Positions 14,531 through 59,554 of a stretch of 64,000 nucleotides of DNA are shown here, one piece after another. The number at the start of each line of letters is the position of its first letter. Within the stretch, counting starts at the first letter, position 1. Source of the stretch: Heptranchias perlo (taxonomy: Eukaryota); assembly GCF_035084215.1 (NCBI RefSeq), contig NC_090327.1, positions 31,496,001 through 31,560,000 on the forward strand. Reading direction: 5' to 3'. The translations under genes and the position numbers were made by a program. Under the pieces are notes generated by a model, which had not been told where the DNA came from, made no database searches, and saw only the letters and a list, made by a program, of their open reading frames with translations.

Positions 14531-14633
14531 TCAGAATTCAAAATCTTTATCGGTCATATCGATGGCCCAAGCAAATTTCTCTCTCTGCGTCTTATTGTAG
14601 ATCTTCTCAATAGGAACACCCCACTTCTTGCAC
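14531..14633 (-). CDS. TOP1MT: Topoisomerase I last coding exon ([33 protein letters not shown])
   Basis: AG acceptor at 14635-14634, 103 nt to TGA at 14533-14531; canonical Top1 C-terminus. Confidence 0.95.
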
Positions 14634-38600: not shown

Positions 38601-41600
38601 TTTGCTGGCATTTACCATCTAGGTTCACCTATGAAGAATGGTCATTCGGGTGAGCTGCCAAAACCTGTTGGATTGCACCCCAACATGAATCAGGTGCCTT
38701 AAGGACAGGAGGAAGTTTGCAACAAATTTTGCTACTTGACAATATATTCTCACCTGTTTCTCCTCCTTGGGTAACGCTTTCTTGGCCTCTGCTTTTTCAG
38801 TGAAGTATTGATGCATGCTCCTGAAATCGCATTGATTTAGGTTGGTGATTATCGTCTTCTCACAGTCGTTCATTTCCTGTACCCCAGAGGAAATCCATTA
38901 ACAGTTGTGTTAGCACACATCATTTATCACTGAGATCAGCTCACAAACTGATACAACTTTCATTTTTATTGCCTTCAGGATTATTATGCAAAACTGTAGT
39001 ACTTGGGCACCAAATCATGCTACAAGTGGTAGAAAATCGTGGAAGCTATCATGAAGAACTTTAATTTACATAGTACTTTAGAACCAATGAATTACTTTTG
39101 AAGCGCAGTGACTTGTTAGTCACTGCACTTCAAACGCAGATGAACTGCACACAGCAAAATGTCACAAACAACGTGGCGAGTGATTGTTGTGGGATGCATG
39201 AACATATGAAAATGACGGGCAGGAAAAGACCATATGGTCCATCAAGCCTATCCCAATCCTGATTTATGACGCATCGTGATTAGACATCCCTACCCATCAG
39301 TAACCATGTAATCTCCTGGGAGAGGCAAAAAAAATAAAAAACAATGGTTAATTAGGGGGAAAAAAATCTGGAAAATTACTCTCCTACCCTGTTAGGCGAA
39401 TAAAATTAGTCCAGGAGACCACATTGACCATGCTTATATTACCTGGTATTTCACCTACCTTTTATAAGATGTGATCTCTGCATACTTTCAAGACAGCTGA
39501 ACCAGTTCCTGGCTGGAGCAGAGGGTCAGCACCCACTGCACGAGCTGGCAACTTATTCAATAGATCCACTATCCTCCGGGCAAAAAACCTAACATTTAAT
39601 CTAGCCCTACCTTTGAGTAATTTATATGCATGACCCCTGGTCTTCCACAATCCCTCAGTAGGAACAGACATTGTGCCGCTACAATCACGATGCACATATA
39701 GTCCATAACAATGATGCAGTCAGTTATCAGACTGTATAGTGGGGTGCAATTCATCTTAATAGCACGGACTCAAATTAACACTAACCCAAACAAGCTACTT
39801 TCATGATTTAACCTCAAAAAGCTAACAGCGCAGTGCAATGATTTTTTTTTTAAAACTTCAAACCTATGGCTCTTAGCATTGCCATTATACCTGCACGGCC
39901 TCGAGAAAGGTTCACCACCAGGCTGGGTACAAAATTCAATGAATCACCTCGGCAGAATCTACAGCAGATACATTTGGAATGCTTACAAAGGTCCAAGCTT
40001 CCACAATGCATGAAGATCAAACTGAGTCAGTACCCATAACAGTGTAATGATATAATAGGTAGCGTGTTATTTTCTAATTTCCACACAAAGAAACAATGTG
40101 ATATATACATAATGCAGCACCCCATGCATCAGTGGCTCAATCTTGCCTGTACAGTTTGTCACTAAATGAAAGGCTACTTCTCTACAGGAGACAAGGGGGA
40201 ATTAAATAGAAGGAAAAATCACTTCCCCCCAATATGTCAATTGTTGAAAGAATGAGCACCTCTCCCCCGATCTTCAACGGCACCATCACTGAGTCCCCCA
40301 CCACCAACATCCTGGAGGGAATTCACCAATGACCAGAAGCTTGACTGGACCAGCCATCTCAACAAGGTAGCTACAAGAGCAAAGCAGAGCCTGGCTACTC
40401 TATAAATGGATCCCCTCCTGACCGTTCAAGGCCTCTCCATCACACTACGGACTTGAGTCTTTTAGATGTTGAATACTCACCTCTCGTCTGGATGGGTGCA
40501 GCTGCCAACACTCAAGAAGCTGGACACCATCCAGGGCGAAGCGGTTCATTTGATTGGTGCCCTTGCCACGACTCAACATTCAACCCCCTCTATTGCCAGT
40601 GCGCTGTGGCTGCAGTATGTACTATCTACAGGATGCACTGCAGCAATTCATCAAGCTTACTTTGACAGCACCTCTCAGGCCCTTGATCTCCAACACCAAA
40701 AAGGGCAAAAACTGTAAAATCATGTACGTTCCCTTCAAGTCACATACCATTCTGACCTGGACATATACAACTGTTCCTTCATCACTGGGTCAAAATCGTG
40801 GAATGCATTACCTATCATTATTGTGGGATCTGCAGTGATTCAAGGCAGCCCACTATCATTACCTACTCAAGTGAACTAGGGATGGGCAATAAAAGTGACT
40901 TTGCCAGCTCAGATTCAGTTCAGAGAATGCTAAAAATACACAGAAGGTCCATTAATACCTACAATAGTAAAGACAGATGTAGACTGAACTCTACACTCAG
41001 TTTTGATGACATTTTGTTGACAGTTTTGATGACATCTAGTCCATGCAGAGGAGCTGAAAGAATCCACTCATTATCTGCTACAAGGATAGCAAGTGAGTTT
41101 AGGGTTATTTTCAACCCGGCCTGAATTGGTAAATCTTACTCAGTTCAGACACAAGGCTGGCTGGTGTGGGGAATGGAAATATCATACTACTGCAGTACGT
41201 GATCTTTCAAAGTTTGTTTGGAGATGCATTCTTTTTTAAAATGATGTGAGCTTGGTTCAGTTGGTAGCACTCTCAACCCAAAATGGTAATTTGTCTTTTC
41301 TCTTTACAGATACTGACAGACCTTCTAGCATTTCCAGTTTTAATTTCACATTTGTTGTTTTTCTATTTATCTTGGATTCCATGCATCCTGATATTTAAAA
41401 AGGAAACTGTTTGTGACATCAAATCAAAAACTGTGGAAACTATCTCTTATTCTTCCTCAGGACCTCAAAACTGTGGAACTCCTTGCCTCCCTCAATCTTC
41501 CAATCTACAGGCTTTTGAAGTCCAAGCTTGGCATCACCAAATCAATATTTCTTGGACAATCATCTTCTATCCAACTCTTTTCGACTTTGCTGTTATCCTA

Positions 41601-43472
41601 CATCAAAGGGCTTGACCCTTCACCTAGGTTTCTCAATTAAAACAAAAGTAACACACCTTCCGCCAGTCGTTAAAGAAGTTCTGTCTGAAGACATCCTTTG
41701 TAGTGTACTCATGATCCAGCATCTTGGCGAAGAAGGTGGCCACTTCTTCCGCTGCGGGACTTAACTTCATTCGATTGCCTACATGCAGAAACAAACCTGA
41801 TTTACAAAACAAGCCATCAAATGTGGAGAGAGGCAAAGAAAACCTACTACAAACTAACTGTAGAGATCAAAAAAATTCAAATTAAAATAAAACCAGGAAA
41901 ATGTTGGGCTTGCTGCGTATTTCCATCAGCATCTGAAAAAAGGTTAATATGGAGTTCTTTGTCAGAACCAGAAACTGGTCGAAAAGTTATTTCTCTTTTC
42001 AGATACTGTCTTATTTCCATGCACAATGTCCAAATTCCTAATAACAATTAGTTCAAAAGATTAGGGACTAGCAGTAAGAACACTACCCTTCCACCTGGTG
42101 GAATCTGGTCCATGCAGATGAGCTGAAAGAATCCACTCATTATCTGCTACAAGGATAGCAAGTGAGTTTAGGGTTATTTTCAACCCGGCCTGAATTGGTA
42201 AATCTTACTCAGTTCAGACACAAGGCTGGCTGGTGTGGGGAATGGAAATATCATACTACTGCAGTACGTGATCTTTCAAAGTTTGTTTGGAGATGCATTC
42301 TTTTTTAAAATGATGAGAGCTTGGTTCAGTTGGTAGCACTCTCTCAAGTGACTCAGGAGGTTGTGAGCTCAAGCTCCACTATGGATTTGAGCACAAAATG
42401 TCGACCAACACTTTAGTGCATTACTGCAATGCTGCATTGTCGAAGTGCCATCTTTTGGACGAGAATTTAAACGAGGCACCATCCATCTGCTCAGGTCGAA
42501 AGATCCCTTGGCAGCATTTGAAAAAGAGCAGGGAGTTCTTCTAGTGTCCTGACCAATGCTGATCCCTCAATCAAAAAATAGATTACCTGGTCGTTCATTC
42601 ATTTTCTGTACGCAAATTAATAGGTGTGTTTTTTTTGCCGACGTAACAGTGACTACACTTCTAAAATAATCCATTAGTTGTAAAGCACTCGGGACATGCT
42701 GAGGGCACGAATGTGCTATATAATTGCAAATTCTTTAATAGCAGAGTATATATGGCTTTACTGTGCCTTAGGATATTCCTGATCAGGCATTTAAACATTG
42801 GAAGGGGGCCAAGACCTGCCACTAAGAGGCTGACTCAGTGGCAGGTTTTGGTCACTCCTTCCAGGGCTTTTCCCCTTTCTTTCCTGAAAGCATAGACCTG
42901 TGTAAGAGTATGATTCCATTGGCATTTCCAACCTCCAAGTCTTGCTCTAAGTGGCCATTCTTTATGCGTGAGGCTAAACTGCTAGTGTTGGCAAGCTATT
43001 CAATTGGGAAAGGAAAGAGGGGGGCATCACAGTGAGTTTGTGGACCCAATGTCCACACAAATTGCACATAGCACCTGCCCGCAGGGGTCACTGGATAGTG
43101 ATCAGTAGTGAGAATTCCTGATAAGGAGTGGAAATTCTTGGTTGATATTCTCCCCTCTCCCTAGCCAAAGGTGCTGGGAACAATTGTAGCAAACAAATTG
43201 CCTTCCCAAGAGATCAGTTAACTCAGCACAGGCCAGGGATGAAACCAGGGGCTTTCCTGGTTTGTATGGTTCAGTTCCCCATCAAGCAATACACTTAACC
43301 ACCGATTTACTGGTGTGAGGCTGAACAGTTTAAAGCGTAACATTTAGGACAATAGAGAATCAACACATACCTGTAAATGAACAGCTATATTTGTAACATT
43401 TAGGAATAAAATAAATTTGATAGAATACCATTCCCTTTTATATCTTGCAGGAGAGGAAGGTTCACTTTCTTC

Positions 43473-43513
<41 letters not shown>

Positions 43514-46500
43514 TGTAAAATAAATATATGCAATACAAACAGGTGAGTAATGGAATAGAACATATAAATTATATATGATATTGTAATAATGTATTTTTTT
43601 AACCATGAGCAAAGCAACAAGAGATCAGGTAGTTTATTCTATATCCCATGATTGGGCCATTTCATTGCATACAAAACAACTATTAAGTTGCTCAAAATTA
43701 TGTGATGTATAACCCCTTGTAATCTGAAGTTAACCTTTACTGTGTATCTTACCAACTCCTTTTTAAAAAAAAAATGAACATTTGCAAAGTTTGAGGGGGT
43801 ATAATTCATTACAGGGCTCCATAAAACTGGAGGAAAGCATCCCCTACTAGGTCACCAACATTTTGATCTGCCACACTAAACATCCTTGTTGCCTCGCTGA
43901 GTAATGTTTGATACAAGAGATAAATTTTGTTGATAATTTATCCAGACCATTGGTGCATTAAAATAAGGCTTCCCAACACTTTTACTCACCATTGTAATAG
44001 AAATCAACACCAAAAGGAAGCGGCTCGTATTCGGGTGCGAACAATGGACCTTTGTGTTCCAGAAACATCCATTTTACGCCATCTTCGTAGTGCTCCTCTT
44101 CCCACCTGATGACAGAACCAATACATTCCACAGGGAAGAAAAGCTAGTTATAGAAGAAACCAATACTAAATATTTTGCAATGACTGATATTCAAGCAACA
44201 GAAAAGACTACCTACCTGCTAGGGTCGTCTTCATTCTTTGAATCAAAGTCATCCTCCACATACTATTGGAGCAATAATTTTTGCCTGGAAAGGTCACAAG
44301 GGACAATGCCCTTATGCATGCAAAGCTATGATGTGATGATATGAGGAACACTGCTTACTTGATCCTTATAAAGTTGAACCACATTTACACCCCTTCCCCC
44401 AGCCACACTGAAGCTTCACTTTATTTTGACCCAAAAATCTCCAGAAGTGTAAAAGGATAAGACCCGATGAAATTATTCCCTGTAAAGATCTGAGGGCGAA
44501 TGTGTGTAGGCCCAAGCACATCTCAATTAAATGCCCTGCGAACACTTGGAGCAGGTCCCGGAACCATAACCGTGCAAAGTCGAATACTTTCAGGAGACAA
44601 AGGGAAAAAATCTGGCAGGGGAGAGGAGTCTAGTCCTTGAAAGCCATCCTCGGCAAAGGTATTTGTAAATCACTAAACATGGGAGATAGGGTTGGTCAAA
44701 GATAAGTGCCTTGATCGGACTCAGCCTGAAGAACAAGCAAAACAATTTTTCAAGAGTAGACTTTTCGATCACATTAGCCAACAGGATCAAAGGGAGAACA
44801 ATTTAATAAAGAACCTGAATGGAAATGAAGATTTCTAGATCCTTTAAATTAATTGAAAAAGCAAAAGATGTCTCAAAAAGAAATACGGAAGACTGATAGC
44901 TACCTCGGATAGAGAGCTTCACCCACAGGTGTCAGAACCTTAATGTTGACCTTACAGGAACGAGGGTTATACCACCAGGAGGACCAATGAACACATTTCT
45001 TTCACTTCTCTGAAGCCAACAAAGTGTGCACTACTGGAGATGAAAAACCTTTGCTTCCTCAATGTCTGTTTATCTCTATTGGGGCAATGGAGATCTGCTG
45101 TTCAGCAAACCACTGGCATAAAGTAGGATCAGCTCTGAGTGAATTCTTCCATGTTGGCGGGGCCATATTTCTGGTCTCCATTATACAGGAACACAACTTT
45201 AGTGTTCTACAATCCAGTCCTTGTCATTCAGATAATTGGATTTCAAGCTGGTCAAGAGGTTTAAAAAAAAAAGCCTTGCTCAGAACACTTCTATAATAGC
45301 TCAAGATAAGACTTGTAGTTGCCAACCTCCTAGAATGTGGTGAAGATTTGGATATTTGTCCAGGATATCCCTTGATGGGCAGCTCTTATGAGTTGTCTAT
45401 AAACGGATAAATGTGCAAGCACTGCAGCCTTAGGGAACATCCAGGGGTTAAATAAAGTATACTTATGACTGCTACTATGGAAACGAAACAGCACAAGTTC
45501 TTATAAAGGCTGGATGACAATGTTAAAGCAGGCATGTTTATTTTTTCTGGACACAGCCTAAATGATTTGAGGTAGTATCACCATCTTCTTTGACAAACTT
45601 GTTCAGTAATTAGTGATTGGGTGAAAGAGGTCCATTTTTTTGGGGAACAACAAACCACCATGACTAAAATCTGCTTCTTTTTTGGGAAAGAAATTGCTTA
45701 ATTGCAAGAGATGACAAAAGACTATCTATCTTGGTTGCCACCAGCTTGGGAATGCCTCAAGAGGCTGCAGAAATGTGATAGATCTCAGAATGTATGGTTT
45801 ACTCTCTGCCGATTGTCTTCTGACTCTATCTTTGAAATTAATCTGCACTCTATTTGCTGAGAATCAAAGCTGGTAGTTTCATACTTACACAAGACAGATG
45901 ACTGCTGATTTAAAAAAAAAATAACTCTAGCTGATTTTCTGCTGGCTACCTCAGAATGGATCTGGATCAGAGCTGTTTGCTGCACGTACTGTGTGGGCTA
46001 AGTCCTGACTTAGATCGTCATGGGCTCTAGGATCTTGGCTAAAAATACATAAAGGCTGCTGTTTCTGCCTCGTCCTTAGACTGGTGATTCTGCTCATGGT
46101 AGGAAATTTTATCCCAAAGGATCATTTCTGGGATGGCTTAGAGATCCTGCTAATAATACTTGCAACCTTCAAACATTTCCATCAGTTTCTCAATGAAGAA
46201 ATCCTCCCATTGAAAGGCATCTGCAGCAGCTTTGCCTGCACCTCCTGGAGATGCATGGCCATACAAGTCATTCAGCAAGATTTTCTGTGTTAAGCTGCTA
46301 CATCTACCACGCTGCAGTTGTGAGATAGTCTGGAGGAGGTCCTTCAGCAGCAACAGGAAGGCTCCCTAGCAGGGCTTTGGATGTCAATTATTACAGCCTG
46401 AAGCAGAGCTACTTGCTGCTAAAAGATGGCCAGTGGCTTTAAAACCATGCTATTTTGAGTAGGGCAGACTCATTAGTGAAGGACTTTTGACTCAAATTAT

Positions 46501-49500
46501 GTCCCAGCTGAAGATCTAGTCAAAGAAATATGACACTTTCTCTTAAGTTGGCAGCAGGAATTATGTATATACAGGCTAATTAATACTCAATTTCAGAGTA
46601 TGTGCTGCTTCCACAAATCTACCCAGACTCCCTTGTGTGCAGATGAAATAAAACCTGTAAAGGTCAAGGAAGTTGACCATTAAGAGATCTGCAGCAATGA
46701 CTCCAATCCCAGGGTAAGAATGGGCTGCCTGATTCAGGTCCTCAAGTATTTGAGGAATCACCATGCCTCTTGGCATTCTGTTGCTTAAGTCACTGACTGG
46801 TGCCAGGATAGAACTCTTCCTTGCACAGGATCTCAGGACTGTCTTGATGCCAAGGTGAACTCCATCACTGCTGACTGATGTGGTAGATGGAATGAGAAAA
46901 TGGAATTGCCATAGCCAATCATTAGTACGGATCAGATCAAATTGAGCGTACAAAACTTTTGTTGCAGCTGGTATCAAGGCTTTTTAGGCAATGGGCCCTG
47001 TGGCATCACTGAATTAGAAGGATGCCCAGCACCTACCCCATGCCGATTTTACTTCAGTGTTTAACATGCTTTTCACAGACGTGTTGCAAGCAGTCCTAGC
47101 AAAAAATACAGAGGCTCACTTTATAAGCAGCCATATCATGTTCACCACAGAAGCAGTGAAGGCAGAATCATGAGAGTCTGCAACCATGAAAGCTCAAGTG
47201 TAAAGTCAATGTTTGATGCCTCCATGCATAAAAAGGAAGAATTCTACCTTATCTCACAGCAACAGAATCAGTCCATACCAATAATCAAAACGTGGCTGGG
47301 GATGAACTGAGGTCAAAATGATTTAAAGCAACAGGGCATGGTTAATTCCTCCCCCCAAAAAAGGTATGGGAAAGATCATGTGCATAATGTTCAATGTCAT
47401 GACATCACAACAAAGCGGAAGGAAAGGTCTGCCCAGGGGGAGGGACAATTACTTTTTAGTCAAAGTATTGAAGAAGGTAGTAAGATTGATTGAGTTTCAA
47501 TTTTAATCCAGAGTACGGAAGCCCTCAGGTAGGCCCTCCCTCAGTTAGGCCTAGTGTCACCAATACAGAGAGAACACAACTTTACCAGCCTGAAGGCCAC
47601 CATAGAGACACCCAATCCCCCAGGAGACAATGCCAATAGAAAACCAACATCTCTAGCTGTAGTCTGGTTTTCTGAAGTTTGGTGGCTTCAGGTCATTTTA
47701 ATTTGCACCCAATGCTGTTTGTAAAGGAGACAAGCTGATACAATGACCATCACTAGAGCTGTCTAACAGATGTAGACTGTACTCAAGGGTATCCATGTCA
47801 GTTTCACAAGAAAATTGGCATTTTAAAAAAAATTACAATGAGTATTACTTTATACTTACATTTGTACCTTAAATAAAAAGTATCTCCTCTCACCTTTCCA
47901 TTTAACAAAACAGTACCTTGCGACTTTTCTTTGGCAGGACAGTAGAGAGGCATTGCTTCTGCCTTCCCCAGAAGTACTTGGAAGATTCCAAGAATGAAGA
48001 ATTAAAATCATAAACTGCTTGAATTTACCATAATGGTTTGAATTGAAAATCTAGGATTAGACCACAAACTCACTATCGTAGACATTATTTATCAATTGGA
48101 AAGGAGGCGTTGGAAAGCTATATAGGCAATACATTAGGGTGTTGAAAAGACTTGCTCTCAAGGTAGTCCACTACATCTCTGGGAGAAACTCCACAGCTAC
48201 CAAGAGGTACAGTACAAAATTAACATGCATCAACAGCACAAAGCTATTCGTAACAGACATTGTACTTTAAATTTAATTGCCTGTGAAATACTTTGAGGTG
48301 TTCCTTGAAGATGCGATAAGACACTGTATAAATACAAGTTTTCTTTTAAAGCCATTGCCCTTTTCCAGATGTCTGCCCATTTAAAAGCACTGCGCAGGGG
48401 TAAGGCATTATTTTTTTTTCTCACTTACTCAGACAGCTGCTTATATGAAGCTACATGTCGTCATTAAATTGGAGGGAAACTTTCCTAATGGCATATGAAT
48501 GCCTGGTGGTTTACTGTTGCCATTATCTGGCCTTTAAACCATTTTCTGATGTGGACTCACACAAGCAATCCCTCCCTACACCCTCAAAAGCTCAAACCTA
48601 AAGTGCCGTTGTGGATCATATACAATCTTCAGTGAATAGTGAGCCAGCAGTTTGCAGGATGCATTGATGTCATCGTCACTCAAGTTGCCATTCGTCTTCT
48701 CATTACCCCCTAATGTGGCTACACTCAAAGTGGCAGACCTGGTGACGCAAGGAAAGGAAGGCTCCATGATTCAGCTTTTTAAATCTTTTGGCAAAAAACA
48801 AATCTACCAATTGCTGTAATTTAAAAAGGAACATAAAGCTCCACTTTATCAATCAGTCATAATATAAAAGAACAGATCAGATGATTAAAAGGATTAATGA
48901 TGCTGCTCTGCAATTTAACAATAAGCATAAATTTAATGCCGTAGAACATAGTGTTGCAGTTTGATTCCATATTGTAAGAAATGAGTCGTACGAGTGGTTT
49001 TAATATTTGTTTTTGAGGCAAGGAATATTGGTAGATTGCGGTCAGAGTCAATCACTTCCAGGTCAGCTTTGGCAGGAGTTCAACCTGTTCCTCTAATGTA
49101 TCACAGTGAATTTTCTACACTGCAAACTAGCCTGACTTAGTGTTTTGGAGTAAGAATGTCAATTAGGGAAAAATGAGGGTAGGTTTGTTCTAGGTCCCTT
49201 TTCTGATTAAGACCAGAGTTGAAACTGCTCCAATTCATTTAAATCGGGACCCCTACAGCTAGCGGTCTCTGGTATCATTAGTCTGTGGAGGATATATTGA
49301 TGGGGTTAGATGAAGGGTGGGAGGAGCATAAACACTGGCATGGACCTGTTAGACCGAATGTACAGCACAGAAACAAACCATTCTATGTAATTCAAACTCA
49401 AGTCCCAGAGGTGAAAGGACAGTGTGCTAACTCACTACACCACCCAGGCTTTTAGATTGGTGATGTTAAGTCAAACCCGTCACCCACAGTGCACACTACC

Positions 49501-52500
49501 CAAAAGCAGACACCAACAGGTGCTGCACATTCACAATATGTTGGGAGTTTCAACCTGCTGCGCCACAAGACTTGGGTTTAATATCCTCTGGTTAACACCT
49601 TTATATAAAATTCCTTTTTGTGCTATTTTACTGCAATTGTTAGCATGTTCACATTTTAACAGATCAACAACAACTACATTTGAATAAGTAAAAAGGAATT
49701 GCAAACACATTAAACTAGGCCACTACAGGAAATTAAAGCTCTCTGGAAGCAGTAGCTGCTGCACCTGTTACAGCAAGAAACTTAAGGGTAAGTTTTCAAC
49801 CCAGCCTTTAAAACAGACAGTAGGAACCAAGAGCAGCAGCAGTTCATCTCATCTCGTCACTGATCAAATATTATAATATGGAATCATATGGCACAATAGG
49901 AGGCCATTCGGCCCATCGTGCCTGTGCTTTGTAAGGGCTATCCAATTAGTCCCATTCTCTTGCTGTTTCCCCATAACCCTGCAAATTTTTTCTTTTCAAG
50001 TATATATCCGATACCCTTCGTCAGGTTATTATTGTATCTATTTCCTTTCAGGCAGTGCATTCCAGATCATAACAACTAACTGCGTAAAAAAATTCTCATC
50101 TCCCCCTAGGTTCTTCTGCTAATTATCTAAAATTTGTATCCTCTGGTTACCGACCCTTCTGCCAGCGGAAACAATTCTTCCCTATGTACTCCATCAAAAT
50201 CCCTCATAATTTAGAGCTTAATTAAATCTCCTCGTAACTTTCTCTGCTCTAAGGAGAACAATCCCAGCTTCTCTAATGTCTCCATATAATTTAATTTATT
50301 TAATTAAATATCTCTATTTACAAACCTGGAAGCATACCCTTTATCAAGAAGTCCTATACTACTACCGAAAAATTGCTCAATGTTCCAGAGAATCAAACTT
50401 GATAGCGGTCAAATTACTGGTCTAGTGGAAGCTGGGACCTTTCTGTTCCAGTGGCACTGTATAGCACCACTGAAGGGTTGCAATGGTCGTCACCATTTTC
50501 AGAAGCTTTCTTTTAAAAAAAACTGATGAACTTTTTCATAAGACCTCACTTTCAATATGGGCAGGTTGAACACGGTGCAATCTAACATTCCAACACCACC
50601 CATCATCTCTCCAGTTCCCAGTCAATTCATCTCATACCAGTGAGCCTAATACATCACCTCAAAGAATCAGGAGAGAAAGGACTGATGGTTTTAGGGGTTA
50701 ACCAGTATAAAATAAATTAAAAATGCTAAAGACAGTGAGTATCACTAGTTAATCTATTTATTTCTTGAAAACAATCCTCATCCCTTTCTATTAATTCCCA
50801 CTTTACCCCACTCTATAGAATTGAAAGTTGTAACTTACCTCTTTTCTGCAAACTGTGCTCTCTGAAGAACAGAAACCGTGCATCTTAAATTCCTCACAGA
50901 TAAATAGGTGCACATAATGTTGAAGTTAGCAAAGGCTATCTGTGTCACCGCAGTCACACATCTGAACATAACAAAATAACACTGCTGGTGCAAGCGATCC
51001 CCAAGGCTAGCTTACTTCAAAACACACTGCACTGAAAAAGAAAACCTCCATGCATGATACACTCGCCTGACTCATTACTGCTACATTTTGAACTTTCAAC
51101 CTGGAAACACTTCCTGTGGTCCTGCTAATTTCTTTTCCCACAGACAACAAATTTCTGCACATGGTAACAGAACTTGCAGACCAGTACAAGCCTCACTTTC
51201 AGTTCTCAATTTTTATTTGTGTATGTATGAACAAGGTGAAAAGAGAAAACAGGATGAAGAGGAGAAAGGAATAAACAGCCTCACTTATTGTTGATCATGA
51301 TGTGGATCATTATTGTTGACAGTTTCAAAGTAAAACCAAACACTTTTCATTTTAGAATTTTTGTTCCTTTACAAACTCTCATCGGCAGTCTCTCGACCCT
51401 GCCAAAGATGCAGTGTCAACTTTCTGTAGAACTTACACATATTCATAATATTATAGTAGGTACAGCACAGGAGGAGGCCATTCAGCTCATCGTGTCTGTG
51501 CTGGCTCTTTAAAAGAGCTATCCAATTAGTCCCATTCCTCTGTTCTTTCCCCATAGCCATGTAAATGTTTTCCCTTCAAGTATTTATCTAATTCCCTTTT
51601 GAAAGTTACTATTGAATCTGCTTCCACCAACCTTCAGACAGTGCATTCCAGATCATTACAACTCGCTGCGTAAAACAATGTTTCCTCATATCTTATAAGA
51701 TATTAAAGGGGAATTATAAGATATTAAGGGGAACAGATAGGGTGGATGGAGAGAAACTATTTCTGCTGGTTGGGGATTCTAGGAGTAGGGGGTACAGTCT
51801 AAAAATTAGAGCCAGACCTTTCAGGAGTGAGATTAGAAAACATTTCGACACACAAAGGGTGGTAGAAGTTTGGAACTCTCTTCCGCAAACGGCAAGTGAA
51901 ACTAGCTCAATTGCTAAATTTAAATGTGAGATAGATAGCTTTTTGGCAACCAAAGATATTAAGGGATATGGGCCAAAGGCGGGTATATGCAGTTAGATCA
52001 CAGATCAGCCATGATCTTATCAAATGGCGGAAGCAGGCACGAGGGGCGAAAGGCCTACTCCTGTTCCTATGTCGCCTCTGGCTCTTTCGCCAATCGCCTT
52101 AAATCTGTGTCCTCTGGTTACTGACCCTTCTTCCACTGGAAACAGTTTCTCTTCATTTATTCTGTCAAAACCATTCATGATTTTGAACACCTCTATCAAA
52201 TCTTCTCTTAACCTTCCTTGTTCAGAGGAGAACAACCCCAACTTCTCCAGTCTCTCCACGTAACTGAAGTCCCTCATACCTGGTATCATTCTAGTAAATC
52301 TCTTCTGCACCCTCTCTATGGCCTTGATATTATTCCTAAAGTGTGGTGCCCAGAATTGAACACAATACTCCAGCTGAAGCCTAACCAGTGTTTTATAAAG
52401 GTTTTGCATAACTTCCTTGCTTCTCTACTCTGTGTCTCTATTAATAAAACCCATGATCCCATAGCTTTTTAAAAAAAAAATAAAAACAGCCTTCTCAACT

Positions 52501-55500
52501 TGTCCTGCCACCTGCAAAGATTTATGTATGTGCACCCCCAGGTCTCTGTTCTTGCATCCCCTTTAAAATTGTATCATTTAGTTTATATTGCCTCTCCTCA
52601 TTCTTCCGACCAAAATGTATCATTTCACATTTCTCTGCATTAAATTTCATCTGCCATGTGTCTGCCCATTTCACCAGTCTGTCTATATTCTCCTGAAGTC
52701 TGATACTATCCTCCACATCGTTTACTACAGTGGCTTGCTAGGCCATTTGAGTAGACTAAGCCTGTATTCTCAAGTTTAGAAGAATGAGAGGTGATCTCAT
52801 TGAAACACAAAATTCTTACAGGGCTCGACAGGGTAGATGCAAGGAAGAGGTTTCCCTGGGCTGGGGAGTCTAGAACCGGGGTCACAGCCTCATGTCGTCC
52901 GCAAACTTTGAAATTATATCCACTATACCCAAGTCCAGGTCATTAATATATAATCAAAAAGAGCAATGGTCCTGGCGAACTTAAGAAAATAAGAAATAGG
53001 AGCAAGAGTAGGCCCCTCAAGCGTGCTCCGCCATTCAAGATCATGACTGATCTTCTACCCCAACGCCATTTTCCTGCTCCACCCCATATCCCTTGATGCC
53101 TTTAATATCTAGAAATCTATCGGTCTCTGTTTTGAATGGGCTCAATGACTGAGCCTCCACAGCCCTCTGGTGTAGAGAATTCCAAAGATTCACCACCCTC
53201 AGTGAAGAAATTTCTCCTCTTCAGTCCTAAATGTTCTACCCCTATTCTAAGGCTGTGACCCCTGGTTCTAGACTCCCCAGCCCAGGGAAACATCTTCCTT
53301 GCATCTACCCTGTCGAGCCCTGTAAGAATTTTGTGTGTTTCAATGAGATCACCTCTCATTCTTCTAAACTCGAGAATACAGGCTTAGTCTACTCAAATGG
53401 CCTAGCAAGCCACTCAGTTGTATAATCTCGCTAAAAAGAGTCATAATAAGAATAAAACCGGACGGACCACCCGGCATCGGACCACGAGGCATCGGACACG
53501 ACAAAGGCAAACCAAGCCCAGTTGACCCTGCAAAGTCCTCCTCACTAACATCTGGGGACTTGTGCAAAAATTGGGAGAGCTGTCCCACAGACTAGTCAAG
53601 CAACACCCTGACATAGCCATACGCACAGAATCATACCTTTCAGCCATGTCCCAGACTCTTCCATCACCATCCCTGGGTATGTCCTGTCCCACCGGCAGGA
53701 CAGACCGACCAGAGGGAGCGATACAGCGATATACAGTCAGGAGGGAGTGGCCCTGGGAGTCCTCAACATTGACTCTGGACCCCATGAAATCTCATGGCAT
53801 CAGGTCAAACATGGACAAGGAAACCTCCTGCTGATTACTACCTACCGTCGTCCCTCAGCTGATGAATCAGGCCTCCTCCATGTTGAACACCACTTGGAGG
53901 AAGCACTGAGGGTAGCAAGGGCACAGAATGTACTCTGGGTGGGGGACTTCAATGTCCATCACCAAGAGTGGCTCGGTAGCACCACTACTAACCAAGCTGG
54001 CCGAGTCCTGAAGGACACAGCTGCCAGACTGGGCCTGTGGCAGGTGGTGAGCGAACCAACATGAGGGAAAAACTTGCTTGACCTCGTCCTCACCAATCGA
54101 CTTGTCGCAAATGCATCTGTCCATGACAGTATTGGTAGGAGTGACCACCGCACAGTCCTCGTGGAGACGAAGTCCCGTCTTCGCACTGAGGACACCATCC
54201 AATGTGTTGTGTGGCAATACCACCGTGCTGAATGGGATAGATTCAGAACAGATCTAGCAGCTCAAAACTGGGCATCCATGAGGCGTTGTGGGCCAGCAGC
54301 AGAATTGTATTCCAGCACAATCTAACCTCATGGCCCGGCATATTCCTCACTCTACCATTACCAACAAGTCAGGGGATCAACCCTGGTCCAATGAGGAGTG
54401 TAGAAGAGCATACCAGGAGCAACAACAGGCGCACCTAAAAATGAGGTGCCAACCTGGTGAAGCTACAACTCAGGATTACATGCATGCTAAACAGCAGAAG
54501 CAACATGCTATAGACAGAGCTAAGCGATTCCACAACCAACGGATCAGATCAAAGCTCTGCATCCTGCCACATTCAGTCATGAATGGTGGTGGACAATTAA
54601 ACAACTAATGGGAGGAGGAGGTTCTGTAAACATTCCCGCCCTCAATGATGGTGGAGTCCAGCACGTGAGTGCAAAAGACAAGGCTGAAGCGTTTGCAACC
54701 ATCTTCAGCCAGAAGTGCCGAGTGGACGATCCATCTCGGCCTCCTCCCAATATCCCCACCATCACAGAAGCCAGTCTTCAGCCAATTCGATTCACTCCAC
54801 GTGATAGCAAGAAACAGCTGAGTGCACTGGATATAGAAAAGGCTATGGGCCTCGACAACATCCCGGCTGTAGTGCTGAAGACTTGTGTTCTAGAACTAGC
54901 CTCGCCTCTAGCCAAGCTGTTCCAGTACAGCTGCAACACTGGCATCTACCAGACAATGTGGAAAATTGCCCAGGTATGTCCTGTCCACAAAAAGCAGGAC
55001 AAATCCAATCCGGCCAATTACCGCCCCATTAGCCTACTCTCAATCATCAGCAAAGTGACGGAAGGTGTCGTCGACAGTGCTATCAAGCGGCACTTACTCA
55101 CCGATGCTCAGTTTGGGTTCCGCCAGGACCACTCGGCTCCAGACCACATTACAACCTTGGTCCAAACATGGACAAAAGAGCTGAATTCCAGAGGCGAGGT
55201 GAGAGTGACCGCCTTTGACATCAAGGTAGCATTTGACAGAGTGTGGCACCAAGGAGCCCTAGTAAAATTGAAGTCAATGGGAATCAGGGGGAAAACTCTC
55301 CAGTGGCTGGAGTCATACCTAGCACAAAGGAAGATGGTAGGGTTGTTGGAGGCCAATCATCTCAGCCCTAGGACATTGCTGCAGGAGTTCCTCAGGGCAA
55401 TGTCCTAGGCCCAACCATCTTCAGCTGCTTCATCAATGACCTTCCCTCCATCATAAGGTCAGAAATGGGGATGTTCGCTGATGATTGCACATTGTTCAGT

Positions 55501-58500
55501 TCCATTTGCAACCCCTCAAATAATGAAGCAGTCCGTGCTCACATGCAGCATGACCTGGACAACATCCAGGCTTGGGCTGATAAGTGGCAAGTAACATTCG
55601 TGCCAGACAATGACCATCTCCAACAAGAGAGAGTCTAACCACCTCCCCTTGACATTCAATGGCATTACTATCGCCAAATCTCCCACCATCAACATCCTGG
55701 GGGTCACCATTGACCAGAAACTTAACTGGACCAGCCATATAAATACTGTGGCTACAAAAGCAGGTCAGAGGCCGGGTATTCTGCGGTGAGTGACCCACCT
55801 CCTGACTCCCCAAAGCCTTTCCACCATCTACAAGGCACAAGTCAGGAGTGTGATGGAATACTCTCCACTTGCCTGGATGAGTGCAGCTCCAACAACACGC
55901 AGGAAGCTTGACACCATCTACCACCCTAAACATTCACTCCCTTCATCACTGGCGCACAGTAGCTGCAGTGTGTACCATCCATAGGATGCACTGCAGCAAC
56001 TCGCCAAGGTTTCTTCAACAGCACCTCCCAAACCCACGACCTCTACCAACTAGAAGGACATGGGAACACCACCTGCACGTTCCCCTCCAAGTCATACACC
56101 ATCCCGACTTGGAAATATATCGCCGTTCCTTCATCGTCGCTGGGTCAAAATCCTGGAACTCCCTTCCTAACAGCACTGTGGGAGAACCTTCACCACACGG
56201 ACTGCATTGGTTCAAGAAGGTGGCTCACCCCCACCTTCTCCAGGGCAATTAGGGATGGGCAATAAATGCCGGCGTCGCCAGCGACGCCCACATCCCATGA
56301 ATGAATAAAAAAATCTCTCCTCATACCACAATCCCGCCATCCCAGGAATCAATCTGGTGAACCTTTGTTGCACTCCCTCTATGACAAGTATATCCTTAGG
56401 TGAAGAGACCAAAATTGTACTCAACACTCCACGTGCAGTCTCACCAAGGCCCTATATAATTGCAGTAAGACATCTTTACTCCTATACTCAAATCCTCTTG
56501 TAATAAAGGCCAACATATCATTTGCCTTCCTAATTGCTTGCTGCACTTGCATGTTAGCTTTCAGTGACTTATGTGCAAGGACACCCAGGTCCCTTTGAAC
56601 ATCAACATTTCCCAATCTCTCACCATTTAAAAAATACTCTGCATTTCTTCAACAGCACCTCCAAACCCACGACCTCTACCACCTAGAAGGACATGGGAAC
56701 ACCACCACCTGCATGTTCCCCTCCAAGTCATACACCATCCCGACTTAGAAATATATCACCGTTCCTTCATCGTCGCTGGGTCAAAATCCTGTTTTTCCTA
56801 CCAAAGTGGATAACTTCACATTTTTCCACATTATATTCCATATGCCATGTTCTCACCCATTCACTTAGCCTGTCTATATCCCCTTGAAGCCTCATTGCAT
56901 CCTCCTCACAACTTACATTTCCACCCAGTTTTGTGTCATCAGCAAACTTGGAAATAGTACATTTGGTCCCCTCATCCAAATCATTGCTATAGATTGTGAA
57001 TAGCTGGGGCCCAAGCACCGATCCCTGCGGTACCCCACTAATCACAGTCTGCCAACCTGAAAAAGACCCATTTATTCCTGCTCTGTTTTCTGTCTGTTAA
57101 CCAATTCTCAATCCGTGCCTATATATTACCTCCAATTCCATATGCTCTAACTTTGTTCACCAACCTCCTCTGTAGGACCTTATCGAAAGCCTTCTGAAAA
57201 TCCAAATACACCACATCCACTGGTTCCCCCTTATTTATTCTACTAGTTACATCCTCAAAGAACTCCAATAGGTTTGTCAAACATGATTCCCCTTTCATAA
57301 ATCCATGTTGACTGCCAAATTCTATTATTTTCTAAGTATCCTGTTATCACATCCTTTATAATAGATTCCAGCATTTTCCCTACTACTGATGTCAGGCTAA
57401 CAGGTCTGTAGTTCCCTGTTTTCTCTCTCCCTCCTTTCTTAAATAGTGGGGTTATATTTGCCACCCTCCAATCTGCAGGAACCATTCTAGAATCCATGGA
57501 ATTTTGGAAGATGACAAGCAATGCATCCACTATCTCTACAGCCACCTTTTTTAAAACCCTGGGATGTAGATTATCAGGTCCTTGGGATTTATCGACTTCC
57601 AGTCCCATTAATTTCTCTAGTACTTTTTTTTTTACTATACTAATTTCTTTCAGTTCCTCCTTCTCGCCAGACTCTTGGTTCTCTAGTATTTCTGGGAGGT
57701 TTTTTGTGTCTTCTTCCATGAAGACAGACACAAAGTATGTTTAATTTCTCTGCCCTTTCCTTATTCCTCATCATAAATTCTCCCGTCTGTCTATAAGGGA
57801 CACATTTGCCTTTGCCAGTCTTTTCCTTTTTACATAACTCTAGAAGCTTTTACAGTCCATTTTTATATTTCTCGCTAGTTTACTTTCATTCTATTTCCCT
57901 TTATCAATTTCTTGGTCCTCCTTTGCTGAATTCTAAAATGCTCCCAATCCTCAGGCTAACTGCTTTTTCTGGCAACTTTATATGCCTCTTCCTTTTATTT
58001 AATACTATCTTTAATTTCTCTTGTTAGCCACGGTTGGACCACTTTTCTTGTTGGGTTTTTGTGCCTTAAAAGGAACATCACTGCATACTTCCCTCCAGTC
58101 TCAAAAATAACCGTTCACCACCACACTCTGCCACTGTCCCTTTAATCCCATGGGCTTTAATTTTGCTCAAGTCTATTATGTGGTACTTATCAAATGCCTT
58201 TTGAAAGTCCATATACACATTAACCACACTACCCTCATCAACCCTCTCTGTTACATCAAAGAACTCAAGCAAGTTAGTCAAACAAGATTTTCCTTTAACA
58301 AATCAGTGATGATTTTCATTTATTAGCCCATACTTTTCCAAATGCCAATTAATTTTGTCCCGAACTACTGTCTCAAAGTTTTCCCACCATTAGGCTGACT
58401 GGGCTGTAATTGCCAGGTTTATCCCTCCACTTTTTTTTTGAACAGGAGTGTAACATTTGCAGTCCTCCAGTCCTCTGGCACCATCCCCATATCTAAGGAG

Positions 58501-59554
58501 GATTGGAAGATTGAAAGAGTCCAATTAATCTATCAAAAAATAAAGTGGGATAGGGTCTCAAGTGTCAGCCTTGGCTTAATGATGCACTCTCACCTCTGAT
58601 TCGGATGGTTGTGGGTTCAAGCTCCACTACAGAGACTTGAGCATATAATCTAGGATAGCACTTCTGTGCAGTTCTGATGGAGTGCTGCACTATCTGAGGT
58701 GTTGTCTTTCAGATGAAACATTAAAGCGAGGCCCCACTGGCCTTCTCAGGTGGACGTAAAAGATACCCGGCACTATTCAAAGAGCAGGGAAGTTCTCCCA
58801 GTATCCTGGACAATATTTATCCCTCAGCCAACACAACAGATAATTTGGTCATTTATTTCATTGCTATTTGTGGGACCTTGCTGTGCACAAATTGGCTGCC
58901 CCGTTTCCTACATCAGAACAGTGACTACACTTCATTGGCTGTAAAGTACTGTGGAACATCCTGACGCTATGTAAATACAAGTCCTTCTTTCTTACATGCA
59001 GGACCCTCTTTTAATGTAAAGAATCCACAAATTAACAGGGAAGGAGAGTCTAGTGGCCAGTTTGGGTTTGGGGGGGGGGGGGGGGGGGGAAGAGAGAGGC
59101 TGGAGTTTTCATATTGTTACACACTCTCTCCTCCTCTTTTCCACCCCTCGTATTTTAGATTGGGAAAACAGGCTTATCAAAATTGTAATCAATATATTAA
59201 AATACCCCTCAATGCACACCAAAGTGGGCATATCTCTGCTCCCCATCCCAATAATTTTTTTTAGCACTGCACATAAAGAGGTTGTACAAAAAGAGAAACA
59301 TCAAAAGTAACATGACTTTTTTTAAAACTAAAGATGATACTATTACACAATAACTCTTCCCCATCCCAAACCCATTAATCTCACCATTTCCATTTATCTG
59401 CATCTTTTTTCTTCTCTTCCTCCCCTTTCAAATGGGTCTTGTTGCTTTTTTCCTCCTTCAATTTCTGCTTTTTCTCCTCCTTCTCTTTGACCTCGATCAC
59501 GTTCTTCTTTACATTCCCTGATTTCCTTCTCGGCACCTTGCATGCAGATGATGT
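14531..59554 (-). CDS. TOP1MT: DNA topoisomerase I (type IB), TOP1MT-type paralogue; spliced gene with 13 core exons plus alternative 5' exons
   Basis: Core exons of 116,122,123,188,145,144,186,69,115,128,95,150,103 nt join into one open frame with GT-AG introns. All five catalytic motifs are present: LALRAG (R), LGKDS (K), KVFRTY (R), LCNHQR (H), KLNYLD (Y). Confidence 0.93.
15314..15463 (-). CDS. TOP1MT: Topoisomerase I exon carrying the catalytic tyrosine ([50 protein letters not shown])
   Basis: 150 nt with AG/GT ends; SKLNYLDPR active-site motif. Confidence 0.96.
15820..16145 (+). mobile_element. CR1 LINE 3' end
   Basis: [22 protein letters not shown]-type sequence and a CCTATTCCTGT tail. 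Confidence 0.75.
16378..16472 (-). CDS. TOP1MT: Topoisomerase I linker exon ([32 protein letters not shown])
   Basis: 95 nt, CAG acceptor, GTAAGT donor, in frame with both neighbours. Confidence 0.93.
17085..17970 (+). mobile_element. Two CR1 3' ends (about 17085-17390 and 17520-17970)
   Basis: ORF 17547-17825 is near-identical to the C-terminus of ORF 3667-4518; TTCTATGATTCT tail. Confidence 0.85.
18680..18807 (-). CDS. TOP1MT: Topoisomerase I exon ([43 protein letters not shown])
   Basis: 128 nt with AG/GT ends; catalytic His motif LCNHQR. Confidence 0.95.
18955..19320 (-). mobile_element. CR1 LINE 3' end
   Basis: Same family as the copies at 15820 and 33480. Confidence 0.8.
20244..20358 (-). 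CDS. TOP1MT: Topoisomerase I exon ([38 protein letters not shown])
   Basis: 115 nt, TAG acceptor, GTAAGT donor; KVFRTYNAS motif. Confidence 0.95.
20553..20621 (-). CDS. TOP1MT: Topoisomerase I exon ([23 protein letters not shown])
   Basis: 69 nt, CAG acceptor, GTATGT donor. Confidence 0.94.
20715..21400 (-). mobile_element. DeuSINE-type tRNA-headed SINE interrupted by a CR1 3' end (about 20780-21055)
   Basis: Reverse-strand similarity to the SINE at 58565-58992: GCATTTATATAGCACCTTTCA tail at about 20720 and tRNA-like head at about 21340-21400. Confidence 0.7.
22085..22305 (+). mobile_element. CR1 LINE 3' end
   Basis: Near-identical to the 3' UTR at 7000-7210. Confidence 0.8.
23050..23235 (-). 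CDS. TOP1MT: Topoisomerase I exon ([62 protein letters not shown])
   Basis: 186 nt with AG/GT ends; catalytic Arg and Lys motifs. Confidence 0.96.
23615..23960 (-). mobile_element. CR1 LINE 3' end
   Basis: [23 protein letters not shown]. Confidence 0.8.
24000..26220 (+). mobile_element. Relatively young CR1 LINE, about 2.2 kb of ORF2 plus 3' UTR
   Basis: Collinear ORF fragments with [44 protein letters not shown] and KFADDTK; few disruptions. Confidence 0.92.
26730..27625 (+). mobile_element. CR1 LINE 3' fragment
   Basis: [23 protein letters not shown]; TTCTATGATTCTATGATTCT tail. Confidence 0.88.
27837..27980 (-). CDS. TOP1MT: Topoisomerase I exon ([48 protein letters not shown])
   Basis: 144 nt, TAG acceptor, GT donor; translated by hand. 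Confidence 0.94.
28095..28500 (+). mobile_element. Old tRNA-headed SINE-like repeat; decayed relatives at about 16600-16780, 21800-21990, 30230-30350, 32620-32850, 36470-36825 and 43000-43310
   Basis: Recurrent ACTGAGCCATAYAGA..CCCAGGTTCAAT..GGTCTGTG..GAGTTAGCT head with a B-box-like GGTTCAAT, and a GCTGGAAAGTG-like core. Confidence 0.55.
30975..31119 (-). CDS. TOP1MT: Topoisomerase I exon ([48 protein letters not shown])
   Basis: 145 nt, CAG acceptor, GTATGT donor. Confidence 0.94.
32333..32520 (-). CDS. TOP1MT: Topoisomerase I exon ([63 protein letters not shown])
   Basis: 188 nt, CAG acceptor, GTAAGC donor; [10 protein letters not shown] motif. Confidence 0.95.
33480..35085 (-). mobile_element. 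CR1 LINE ORF2/3' UTR remnant
   Basis: [22 protein letters not shown] and RTRG.NLKIRAR motifs. Confidence 0.88.
37733..38344. mobile_element. Non-autonomous DNA transposon (MITE-like, possibly PIF/Harbinger)
   Basis: Imperfect terminal inverted repeats GGGAATTATTTTAGCATGG ... CCAGGCTAAAATTATGCCC around a GC-rich interior; no clear TSD. Confidence 0.55.
38754..38876 (-). CDS. TOP1MT: Topoisomerase I exon ([41 protein letters not shown])
   Basis: 123 nt, CAG acceptor, GTGAG donor. Confidence 0.94.
39200..39660 (-). mobile_element. Old CR1-like 3' end
   Basis: [23 protein letters not shown] in ORF 39462-39695. Confidence 0.65.
40250..40910 (+). mobile_element. Decayed 3' portion of the LINE family seen at 53396-56312
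   Basis: [11 protein letters not shown] and [11 protein letters not shown] motifs, and a GGGATGGGCAATAAA tail. Confidence 0.8.
41034..42343 (+). repeat. 241-bp near-perfect direct repeat (41034-41274 and 42103-42343) flanking a topoisomerase exon
   Basis: Direct reading: constant offset of 1069 with about 3 mismatches. Confidence 0.95.
41657..41778 (-). CDS. TOP1MT: Topoisomerase I exon ([41 protein letters not shown])
   Basis: 122 nt with AG/GT ends; [19 protein letters not shown] motif. Confidence 0.95.
42318..42737 (+). mobile_element. DeuSINE-type tRNA-headed SINE
   Basis: TTGGTTCAGTTGGTAGCACTCTC head, same body as 58565-58992, and a GTGCTATATAATTGCAA tail. Confidence 0.7.
43475..43510. 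repeat. (TA)n microsatellite
   Basis: About 18 perfect AT units. Confidence 0.95.
43990..44105 (-). CDS. TOP1MT: Topoisomerase I first core exon ([39 protein letters not shown])
   Basis: 116 nt, phase-2 CAG acceptor, GTGAGT donor; equivalent to TOP1 exon 9 / TOP1MT exon 2. Confidence 0.94.
49875..50290 (-). mobile_element. CR1 LINE 3' end
   Basis: Same family as 8125-8560. Confidence 0.8.
50839..50969 (-). CDS. TOP1MT: Candidate alternative first coding exon encoding a mitochondrial-targeting-like peptide ([44 protein letters not shown])
   Basis: ATG at 50969 with G at -3 and an in-frame TAA 15 codons upstream; 43 open codons plus 2 nt; perfect AG|GTAAGT phase-2 donor joining the 44105 acceptor in frame. 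The peptide is Arg/Thr/Ser/hydrophobic with one acidic residue, and the sequence is non-repetitive. Confidence 0.75.
51450..52980 (-). mobile_element. CR1 LINE with a plus-strand CR1 3' end (about 51692-52070) nested inside
   Basis: ORFs 52020-52409 and 52522-52716 on the minus strand; the insert is near-identical to 25855-26220. Confidence 0.88.
52980..58075 (-). mobile_element. CR1 LINE (about 52980-53395 plus 56313-58075) split by insertion of another LINE
   Basis: Host sequence continues across the insert (..GTCTACTCAA | TCTCTCCTCATA..); ORFs 56767-57045 and 57255-57731. Confidence 0.88.
53396..56312 (+). mobile_element. Near-complete 2.9-kb single-ORF non-LTR retrotransposon (APE endonuclease plus RT), distinct from the local CR1s; frameshifted
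   Basis: Endonuclease motifs [27 protein letters not shown] and SDH; RT motifs [32 protein letters not shown] and FADD; tail ..CCCATGAATGAATAAAAAAA. Confidence 0.9.
58078..58512 (-). mobile_element. CR1 RT fragment
   Basis: [17 protein letters not shown]. Confidence 0.8.
58565..58992 (+). mobile_element. DeuSINE-type tRNA-headed SINE
   Basis: tRNA-like head (GGTTGTGGGTTCAAGCTCCAC), Deu-domain-like body (GGAGTGCTGCACT..GTCTTTCAGATGA..CTCAGGTGGACGTAAAAGAT) and GCTATGTAAATACAAGTCCTTCTTT tail. Confidence 0.75.
59385..59554 (-). CDS. TOP1MT: Lys/Glu-rich N-terminal-domain exon homologous to nuclear TOP1 exon 8 ([57 protein letters not shown])
   Basis: 170 nt open; T-rich acceptor ending CAG; phase-2 TG|GTGAGA donor that rebuilds KWKW-WEEE with the 44105 exon. 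Confidence 0.85.

Follow-up and report, generated by a model that had tools for sequence, protein, structure and literature searches.

The window, i.e. the whole stretch of 64,000 nt analysed here, corresponds to G000:C3:31496001-31560000 of Heptranchias perlo (RefSeq label) and harbours the gene for TOP1MT on its minus strand. The protein of this locus (C3 in the following, after its contig) matched the Pfam families PF02919, PF01028 and PF14370, and its core aligned over the full length and without gaps to the human TOP1 structure 1NH3, the surroundings of the catalytic motifs being identical in a by-eye reading. CAP, CAT, linker and C-terminal domains are present together with the catalytic Arg, Lys, Arg, His and Tyr, assigning the protein to type IB (TOP1 family). 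The gene shares 13 core exons with TOP1 and possesses one putative targeting first exon, which is the arrangement of TOP1MT. An Rfam search returned no match. Features of the locus are compiled in Table 1.

Table 1 Features of the TOP1MT locus of H. perlo (window positions, or contig positions where prefixed with G000:C3)
Feature	Position	Strand	Remarks
Other 12 core exons, type IB topoisomerase	14531..41778	-	Edges approximate; aa 394-914 mapped; intact through stop codon
Shared acceptor exon	43990..44105	-	First of 13 core exons; reads WEEEHYEDG...
Long-isoform intron, 15,279 nt	44106..59384	-	Contains exon B and its putative promoter
Optional cassette exon, two donors	47859..47980	-	RefSeq models X5 and X6
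Optional cassette exon	48597..48738	-	RefSeq model X4 (651 aa) only
Exon B, alternative first exon	50839..51085	-	~116 nt 5' UTR, then presequence-like peptide from ATG 50969
Exon A, 170 nt	59385..59554	-	Final one of 12 N-terminal coding exons in the long isoform; corresponds to TOP1 exon 8
11 earlier long-form exons	G000:C3:31616043 to 31563351	-	Beyond the window; mapping of P0009
Long-form exon 6, aa 123-158	G000:C3:31582133-31582025		Near-invariant in sharks and rays within a fast-evolving region

The acceptor ..gtcatcag|G at 44105, which opens WEEEHYEDG, fits in phase the donors of both exon A and exon B. An initial sequence-only reading had proposed that two phase-2 donors (59385 and 50839) feed this one acceptor and that exon B is located inside an intron of about 15 kb; splice sites, reading frames and RefSeq models agree with the former, and the intron measures 15,279 nt. 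The RefSeq cluster of the locus comprises nine models, three of which are long (914, 880 and 864 aa) and four of which start with exon B (651, 643, 624 and 604 aa), while the remaining two (563 and 548 aa) begin with neither an exon A-type nor an exon B N-terminus. Both junctions are used, by P0009 (914 aa, long) and P0012 (604 aa, short), respectively, and both N-termini had therefore already been predicted automatically.

Exon A is bordered by the acceptor ..aaacag and the donor ATG|gtgaga, is entered in phase 0 and left in phase 2, and encodes a Lys/Glu-rich stretch of 56 codons ending with ...DADKWK and a split W. An exon of the TOP1 gene on contig C22 (10988176-10988085) agrees with it in both phases and in the ATG|gtgag donor. 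Sequence, phases and donor thus bear out the proposed homology of this Lys/Glu-rich, KWKW-ending stretch to the N-terminus of TOP1. The accompanying view of the nuclear-type N-terminus as a single exon had to be abandoned, since it is encoded by 12 exons reaching 60 kb past exon A outside the window. All 12 have ag/gt borders, form one open frame of 354 aa and agree with P0009; together with the 13 core exons they constitute the 25 exons of the 914-aa long model. The sole CpG-rich patch within the 124 kb examined is found at long-form exons 1-2, and a TATA-like word and a GC box were read by eye ahead of exon 1. NLS-like basic clusters were identified in the long N-terminus by simple regular expressions in K-rich sequence, and nuclear import is predicted. 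The conserved block of long-form exon 6 could possibly represent a binding site; a loosely similar SFEEEL stretch occurs in Xenopus. A search of the ESM Atlas with aa 60-180 gave no usable match, and a protein search with exon A alone gave a single one, namely the locus's own RefSeq model, labelled Heptranchias perlo.

Exon B contributes 43 codons from the ATG at 50969 plus a split R (44 aa) and is left in phase 2 via the donor GAG|gtaagt at 50839, such that the short form consists of 14 exons and 604 aa. The region around its start is CpG-poor. The 5' UTR contains three short out-of-frame upstream ORFs (window 51075-51006), all of which end ahead of the main ATG. A crude scan of the long-isoform intron revealed six open candidates running from an ATG to a phase-2 donor, so that an open frame alone would not count as evidence for exon B. 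Its interpretation as an intronic, ATG-started, presequence-like exon is instead upheld by its use in RefSeq models and by its conservation in 13 sharks and rays: the short N-terminus contains 5-10 K/R and 0-1 D/E in 13/13 chondrichthyan models, with 30-70 % identity to the Heptranchias peptide. The hydrophobic moment exceeded that of shuffled sequences in none of the 13 (P 0.07-0.63).

The C22 gene is a second full type IB gene and codes for a TOP1 of 767 aa with 8 N-terminal exons. In a core tree of 32 rows (8 of the 40 chosen rows were lost to pattern mismatch), C3 groups with TOP1MT (support 96/93) and C22 with TOP1 (98/97). A tree of 35 rows including ray-finned fish yielded 89/82 (not starred) and 98/100, respectively. 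C3 is located outside the TOP1 clade, its place there being taken by C22, and the trees confirm the original naming of the gene as TOP1MT. Amphibians apparently possess a third type IB paralog, represented by P0238/P0240 of Pleurodeles and top1.2.S of Xenopus and positioned outside the TOP1 and TOP1MT clades; the top1.2 protein increases about eightfold from oocyte to egg in the Xenopus proteomic data, and PMC10081982 speaks of two paralogs only. The existence of this paralog and the 89/82 support in the wider tree would be compatible with C3 being a gene of the top1.2 type with an independently acquired targeting exon. This is highly improbable in view of the higher support in the 32-row tree, the position of the Pleurodeles third paralog outside the clade with C3, and the listing of shark and Xenopus sequences of the C3 group as MT in PMC10081982.

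A large-Maf gene is located upstream of both shark genes, at a distance of 0.74 Mb (same strand) from C3 and 0.44 Mb from C22, and a BRO1 gene follows 0.36 Mb beyond the large-Maf gene of C3 (paralog names by eye). In human, TOP1MT presumably neighbours MAFA and RHPN1, in an order that we take to differ from that of the shark. The presence of large-Maf genes beside both loci is in line with the origin of TOP1 and TOP1MT by whole-genome duplication that is proposed in PMC10081982. Additionally, contig C18 carries two broken type IB exons (G000:C18:50541192-50541386 and ~50552568-50552741; L016 and L029), which are 11 kb apart, retain the gene order and contain stops in the first exon. A third large-Maf gene and a BRO1 gene are located on the same contig, at 56.33 and 64.56 Mb, respectively. 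The best identity of the first broken exon is 57 % to the Pleurodeles third paralog, with scores that do not separate the paralogs. The two exons are probably remains of a decayed third ohnolog.

The intron phases of the long form are 0,1,2,0,2,0,2,2,2,2,0,2, compared to 0,1,2,0,2,2,0,2 in TOP1 on C22; the first five and last three are equal, with four exons added between them in C3. A prefix-plus-suffix match of this kind arose by chance in 0.27 %, 0.21 % and 0.85 % of 400,000 draws under three nulls, the statistic having been picked after the pattern had been seen. Both genes also start alike: the first two exons are tiny, intron 1 is short and intron 2 is long. The shared phase pattern and the shared small-exon start lead us to infer that the long N-terminus goes back to the gene as it was before the duplication. 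Gain of the targeting exon after the duplication, as initially suggested, is one of two possible orders of events, the other being that TOP1 lost an older targeting exon. In the latter case, the single pre-duplication gene would already have contained the targeting exon, with TOP1 later losing it and human TOP1MT losing the nuclear exons. We regard this second order as the less probable one and hold it only as a tentative alternative; it concerns history alone and is compatible with the explanation preferred below. The single yeast Top1 is believed to serve both organelles (PMC2770673) and targeting exons evolve too fast for tracing, both of which speak for it. The matching TOP1 intron on C22 (7,061 nt) holds no ATG-to-phase-2-donor candidate of >=20 codons, which argues against it, although loss would look identical.

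Conservation in other sharks and rays extends to the peptides of both exon A and exon B. In 9/9 other species aligned, identity to the Heptranchias protein amounts to 47-75 % for the long N-terminus, 75-97 % for exon 6, 35-54 % for exon A and 80-93 % for the core. Both isoform classes were observed in Heptranchias, Heterodontus, Pristis, Chiloscyllium punctatum, Leucoraja, Rhinoraja, Xenopus tropicalis, Tamandua and Equus przewalskii. No long model was present in the listed clusters of Mobula, Hypanus, Hemitrygon, Amblyraja, Hemiscyllium and Stegostoma, and no TOP1MT of Callorhinchus or Latimeria was among the entries listed. Models of Scyliorhinus and Rhincodon in which exon A continues into part of exon B were treated as prediction artefacts. 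A search for proteins of >830 aa had 2,276 matches, 120 of which were listed; these represent length-selected clusters of predicted proteins and indicate presence, not frequency. Of the 120 listed, 67 have a TOP1MT reference as their closest relative, and a W[KR]W|W[EQ]E junction is displayed by 65 of these 67. Long TOP1MT-like forms span gar, sturgeon, teleosts, frogs, salamanders, caecilian, turtles, birds, alligator and lizards, and among mammals monotremes, marsupials, horse, rhinoceros, pig, colugo and anteater. Long forms of primates or rodents were not found among the listed matches, which does not prove their absence. A curated 607-aa horse model was rejected as a presequence form, as it represents a piece of the long N-terminus. 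A hagfish protein of 911 aa is likewise long and ends with KWKW; since it changed place between the 32-row and 35-row trees, no claim is made for cyclostomes.

The motif SKEKPLQENVISSS (P0131 86-107 and relatives), with the core KPLQENxISS, was detected in 40 of 58 long TOP1MT of bony vertebrates, from teleosts to marsupials. Compared to shuffled sequences, Heptranchias exon 2 (2/300) and Heterodontus (8/300) scored above expectation. The seven other chondrichthyans did no better than shuffles, and homology of the motif to shark exon 2 is not claimed.

The dual layout is likely ancestral for gnathostome TOP1MT, and the human arrangement derived. The earlier suggestion that the shark locus resembles the ancestral state holds insofar as the layout is old; it is not a rare survival, as long forms are annotated in most groups of jawed vertebrates including placental mammals.

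Transcript evidence derives from 8 runs of 2 studies, all tagged 'RNA?' (probable RNA), contigs from 4 of which were placed at 86 % likeness. Evidence for the junctions consists of contig-end coordinates and counts of unplaced letters rather than junction letters, and repeats dominated the joint table. Exon B is covered in 4/4 runs, from 50837 to 51067-51085. The 5' ends of its contigs (51085, 51081, 51067 and 51070) have zero unplaced letters, as expected of a transcript start or first exon. On the acceptor side, 26 letters are unplaced in the exon B records of X2 and X3 and 27 in that of X5 (organism B); the X5 record over exon A has 65 such letters upstream and 26 downstream. The overhangs predicted from a graph of 31-letter words are 26 for exon B in the presence of an intron path, 27 for exon B with exon A as sole rival, and 26 for exon A. 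All four overhangs (26, 26, 27 and 26) are equal to the predictions for both spliced junctions at the assumed k=31, and the intron path begins in the graph at 44078, as it does in the contigs. Expression of the junction between exon B and 44105 is thus indicated in organisms A and B, and that between exon A and 44105 by overhang in organism B only; an exon A contig was seen in organism B and is absent from the listed rows of organism A. Near-continuous intronic contigs (window 44078-48625, depth 5-18) in the runs of organism A are consistent with unspliced RNA or DNA carry-over.

In X5 of the related organism B, depth is 14.6 over exon A versus 99.5 over exon B. This ratio of about one seventh, the modest identity of exon A among sharks and rays and the six chondrichthyan genera with long models unseen in the clusters listed would be in accord with the upstream exons being a decaying, weakly transcribed and functionless remnant of the duplicated TOP1. 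The frames and splice sites are intact, however, exon 6 is conserved at nearly core level and long open forms extend from gar to horse, rendering such a remnant very unlikely.

The locus is probably best explained as a shark TOP1MT ohnolog with two promoters that supplies a nuclear long form and a mitochondrial short form on one core. Located 76 kb from the core, the CpG-rich promoter upstream would drive the 25-exon transcript for the 914-aa enzyme. This enzyme would be directed to the nucleus by the basic import signals of its charged N-terminus, a part derived from the pre-duplication TOP1 gene. The intronic promoter would drive the 14-exon transcript for the 604-aa enzyme, which its presequence would guide to mitochondria as in the case of human TOP1MT. 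We infer both promoters and both import routes from the features described above, and the charged N-terminus suggests that the long form most likely enters the nucleus.

The short form has the same plan as human TOP1MT (601 aa, 14 exons), with one presequence exon and 13 core exons, and belongs to the same clade (PMC10081982). According to PMC10081982 and PMC8455175, the human enzyme is exclusively mitochondrial and its N-terminus short, whereas the shark locus adds 12 upstream coding exons. With its intact charged N-terminus of 354 aa, C3 departs from the description of an exclusively mitochondrial enzyme devoid of an NLS-bearing N-terminus. This exclusivity is a feature derived from the human gene and limits the likeness to human TOP1MT behaviour, not the orthology. 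Vertebrate TOP1 (765-767 aa, 21 exons; C22 in the shark) resembles the long form in its KWKW-ending charged N-terminus and the terminal phases; the long form differs in four extra exons, 354 versus 207 N-terminal residues and the other core clade. Predicted proteins of the same class include XP_067834805.1 (Heptranchias), XP_031759708.1 (Xenopus), XP_048697764 (turtle) and XP_070337875.1 (donkey); such RefSeq and Ensembl models are automated, carry no functional comment and are usually labelled 'mitochondrial'. TOP3A is another enzyme that reaches nucleus and mitochondria from one gene by alternative N-termini (PMC2770673), as is proposed for the shark locus. It does so with alternative start codons on one mRNA, whereas the shark locus has two first exons and coexists with a separate paralog for the nucleus.

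PMC10081982, a chordate-wide evolutionary study, PMC2770673, PMC8455175, PMC3159436, PMC12718117 and PMC2119547 treat TOP1MT as mitochondrial with a short N-terminus, and PMC10081982 took two long Xenopus accessions as TOP1MT with no remark on the N-terminus in the passages covered. The literature searched, most subscription journals being outside it, yielded no description of a TOP1MT isoform that is long or nuclear, and a prior mention is possible. The question whether the arrangement is undescribed has accordingly a divided answer: RefSeq already contains automated models of both isoform classes, and no published account was found in that literature. The arrangement is real, conserved and database-predicted, yet apparently not recognised.

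Dual localisation receives indirect support from frog proteomics, by analogy. The X. laevis protein 'top1mt-like.L', the identity of which rests on its name while PMC9537182 maps it to human TOP1 with peptides unresolved by isoform or paralog, has a nuclear fraction of 0.71 in the oocyte and 0.75-1.0 at 13-16 h. Oocyte nuclear fractions are 0.008 for POLRMT, 0.003/0.005 for TFAM, 0.005 for TWNK and 0.003 for POLG, and 0.079 for top1.1, 0.108 for top1.2 and 0.35 for dual-targeted TOP3A (PMC9537182). The relative level of top1mt-like is 2.38 in the oocyte, 0.65 in the egg, 0.43 at 3 h and 1.38 at 13 h, i.e. a 3.6-fold drop from oocyte to egg, and the oocyte starting levels of top1.1 and top1.2 are 0.46 and 0.085 (PMC9537182). 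The word 'topoisomerase' does not occur in the main text of PMC9537182.

This mostly nuclear frog protein also bears on the view that the long isoform, though produced and conserved, does not provide a working nuclear enzyme in sharks, serving instead as a cytoplasmic store or with upstream exons acting mostly as a leader for a shorter product. The RefSeq forms of 548 and 563 aa with neither N-terminus would suit such a function, as would the adaptation of the human TOP1MT core away from chromatin binding: when directed to the nucleus, human TOP1MT binds mitotic chromosomes poorly (PMC2770673). A 354-codon frame kept open over 12 exons and a block conserved at 75-97 % argue in the opposite direction, as does the frog protein, and we deem a non-nuclear long form unlikely.

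A second Xenopus oocyte dataset (PMC4764573) features a 132-kDa TOP1MT contig as leading protein ID, with human TOP1MT and F7CC85 as best matches; the contig is flagged mitochondrial and has no nuclear ratio there. Canonical TOP1 is given as ~36 nM in the cytosol and 0 in the nucleus, based on one spectrum and a deduced column order (PMC4764573). Neither this study nor PMC9537182 comments on the location of the TOP1MT-like protein in the passages covered. F7CC85 is a long form in the cluster listing. The long TOP1MT of X. laevis has a mass of 128-130 kDa by sequence and is very charged.

A 165-kDa topoisomerase I was reportedly found in Xenopus oocytes by Richard and Bogenhagen in 1989 and 1991 and by Pandit et al. 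in 1996. It is said to be oocyte-specific, larger than and antigenically distinct from somatic TOP1, and lost on maturation. To our knowledge, its gene was never cloned. Size class, compartment and timing fit the hypothesis that this enzyme is the long TOP1MT, although 130 versus 165 kDa would need slow migration in gels and top1mt-like rises again in later embryos. More speculatively, the long form may mainly be a nuclear enzyme of oocytes and early embryos. A joint reading, which we consider about evenly poised between right and wrong, would be that TOP1MT is a dual gene across most jawed vertebrates, that its long isoform is the 165-kDa Xenopus enzyme and supplies the nucleus of oocytes and early embryos with topoisomerase IB while canonical TOP1 is largely kept out of the oocyte nucleus, and that the mitochondria-only state of human reflects a late loss, as long models persist in colugo, horse, pig and anteater.

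Were the long isoform nuclear, the organelle-specific split of the paralogs would be incomplete in most vertebrates, and knockout, knockdown and camptothecin studies on TOP1MT in frogs, fish, birds and livestock would also strike a nuclear enzyme. Long TOP1MT provides a named, testable candidate for the Xenopus oocyte-specific topoisomerase I, and the locus offers natural material for testing the claimed inability of TOP1 and TOP1MT cores to exchange compartments. Predicted long forms from frogs to horses suggest a nuclear job, perhaps in eggs, that was overlooked by the human-based picture.

Between exons A and B, a broken LINE-type element (window 53612-55933) with endonuclease and reverse transcriptase fragments on the plus strand was detected. 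An inverted repeat (window 52729-53414) has arms of ~150 nt with 97-98 % complementarity and a spacer of 378 nt.
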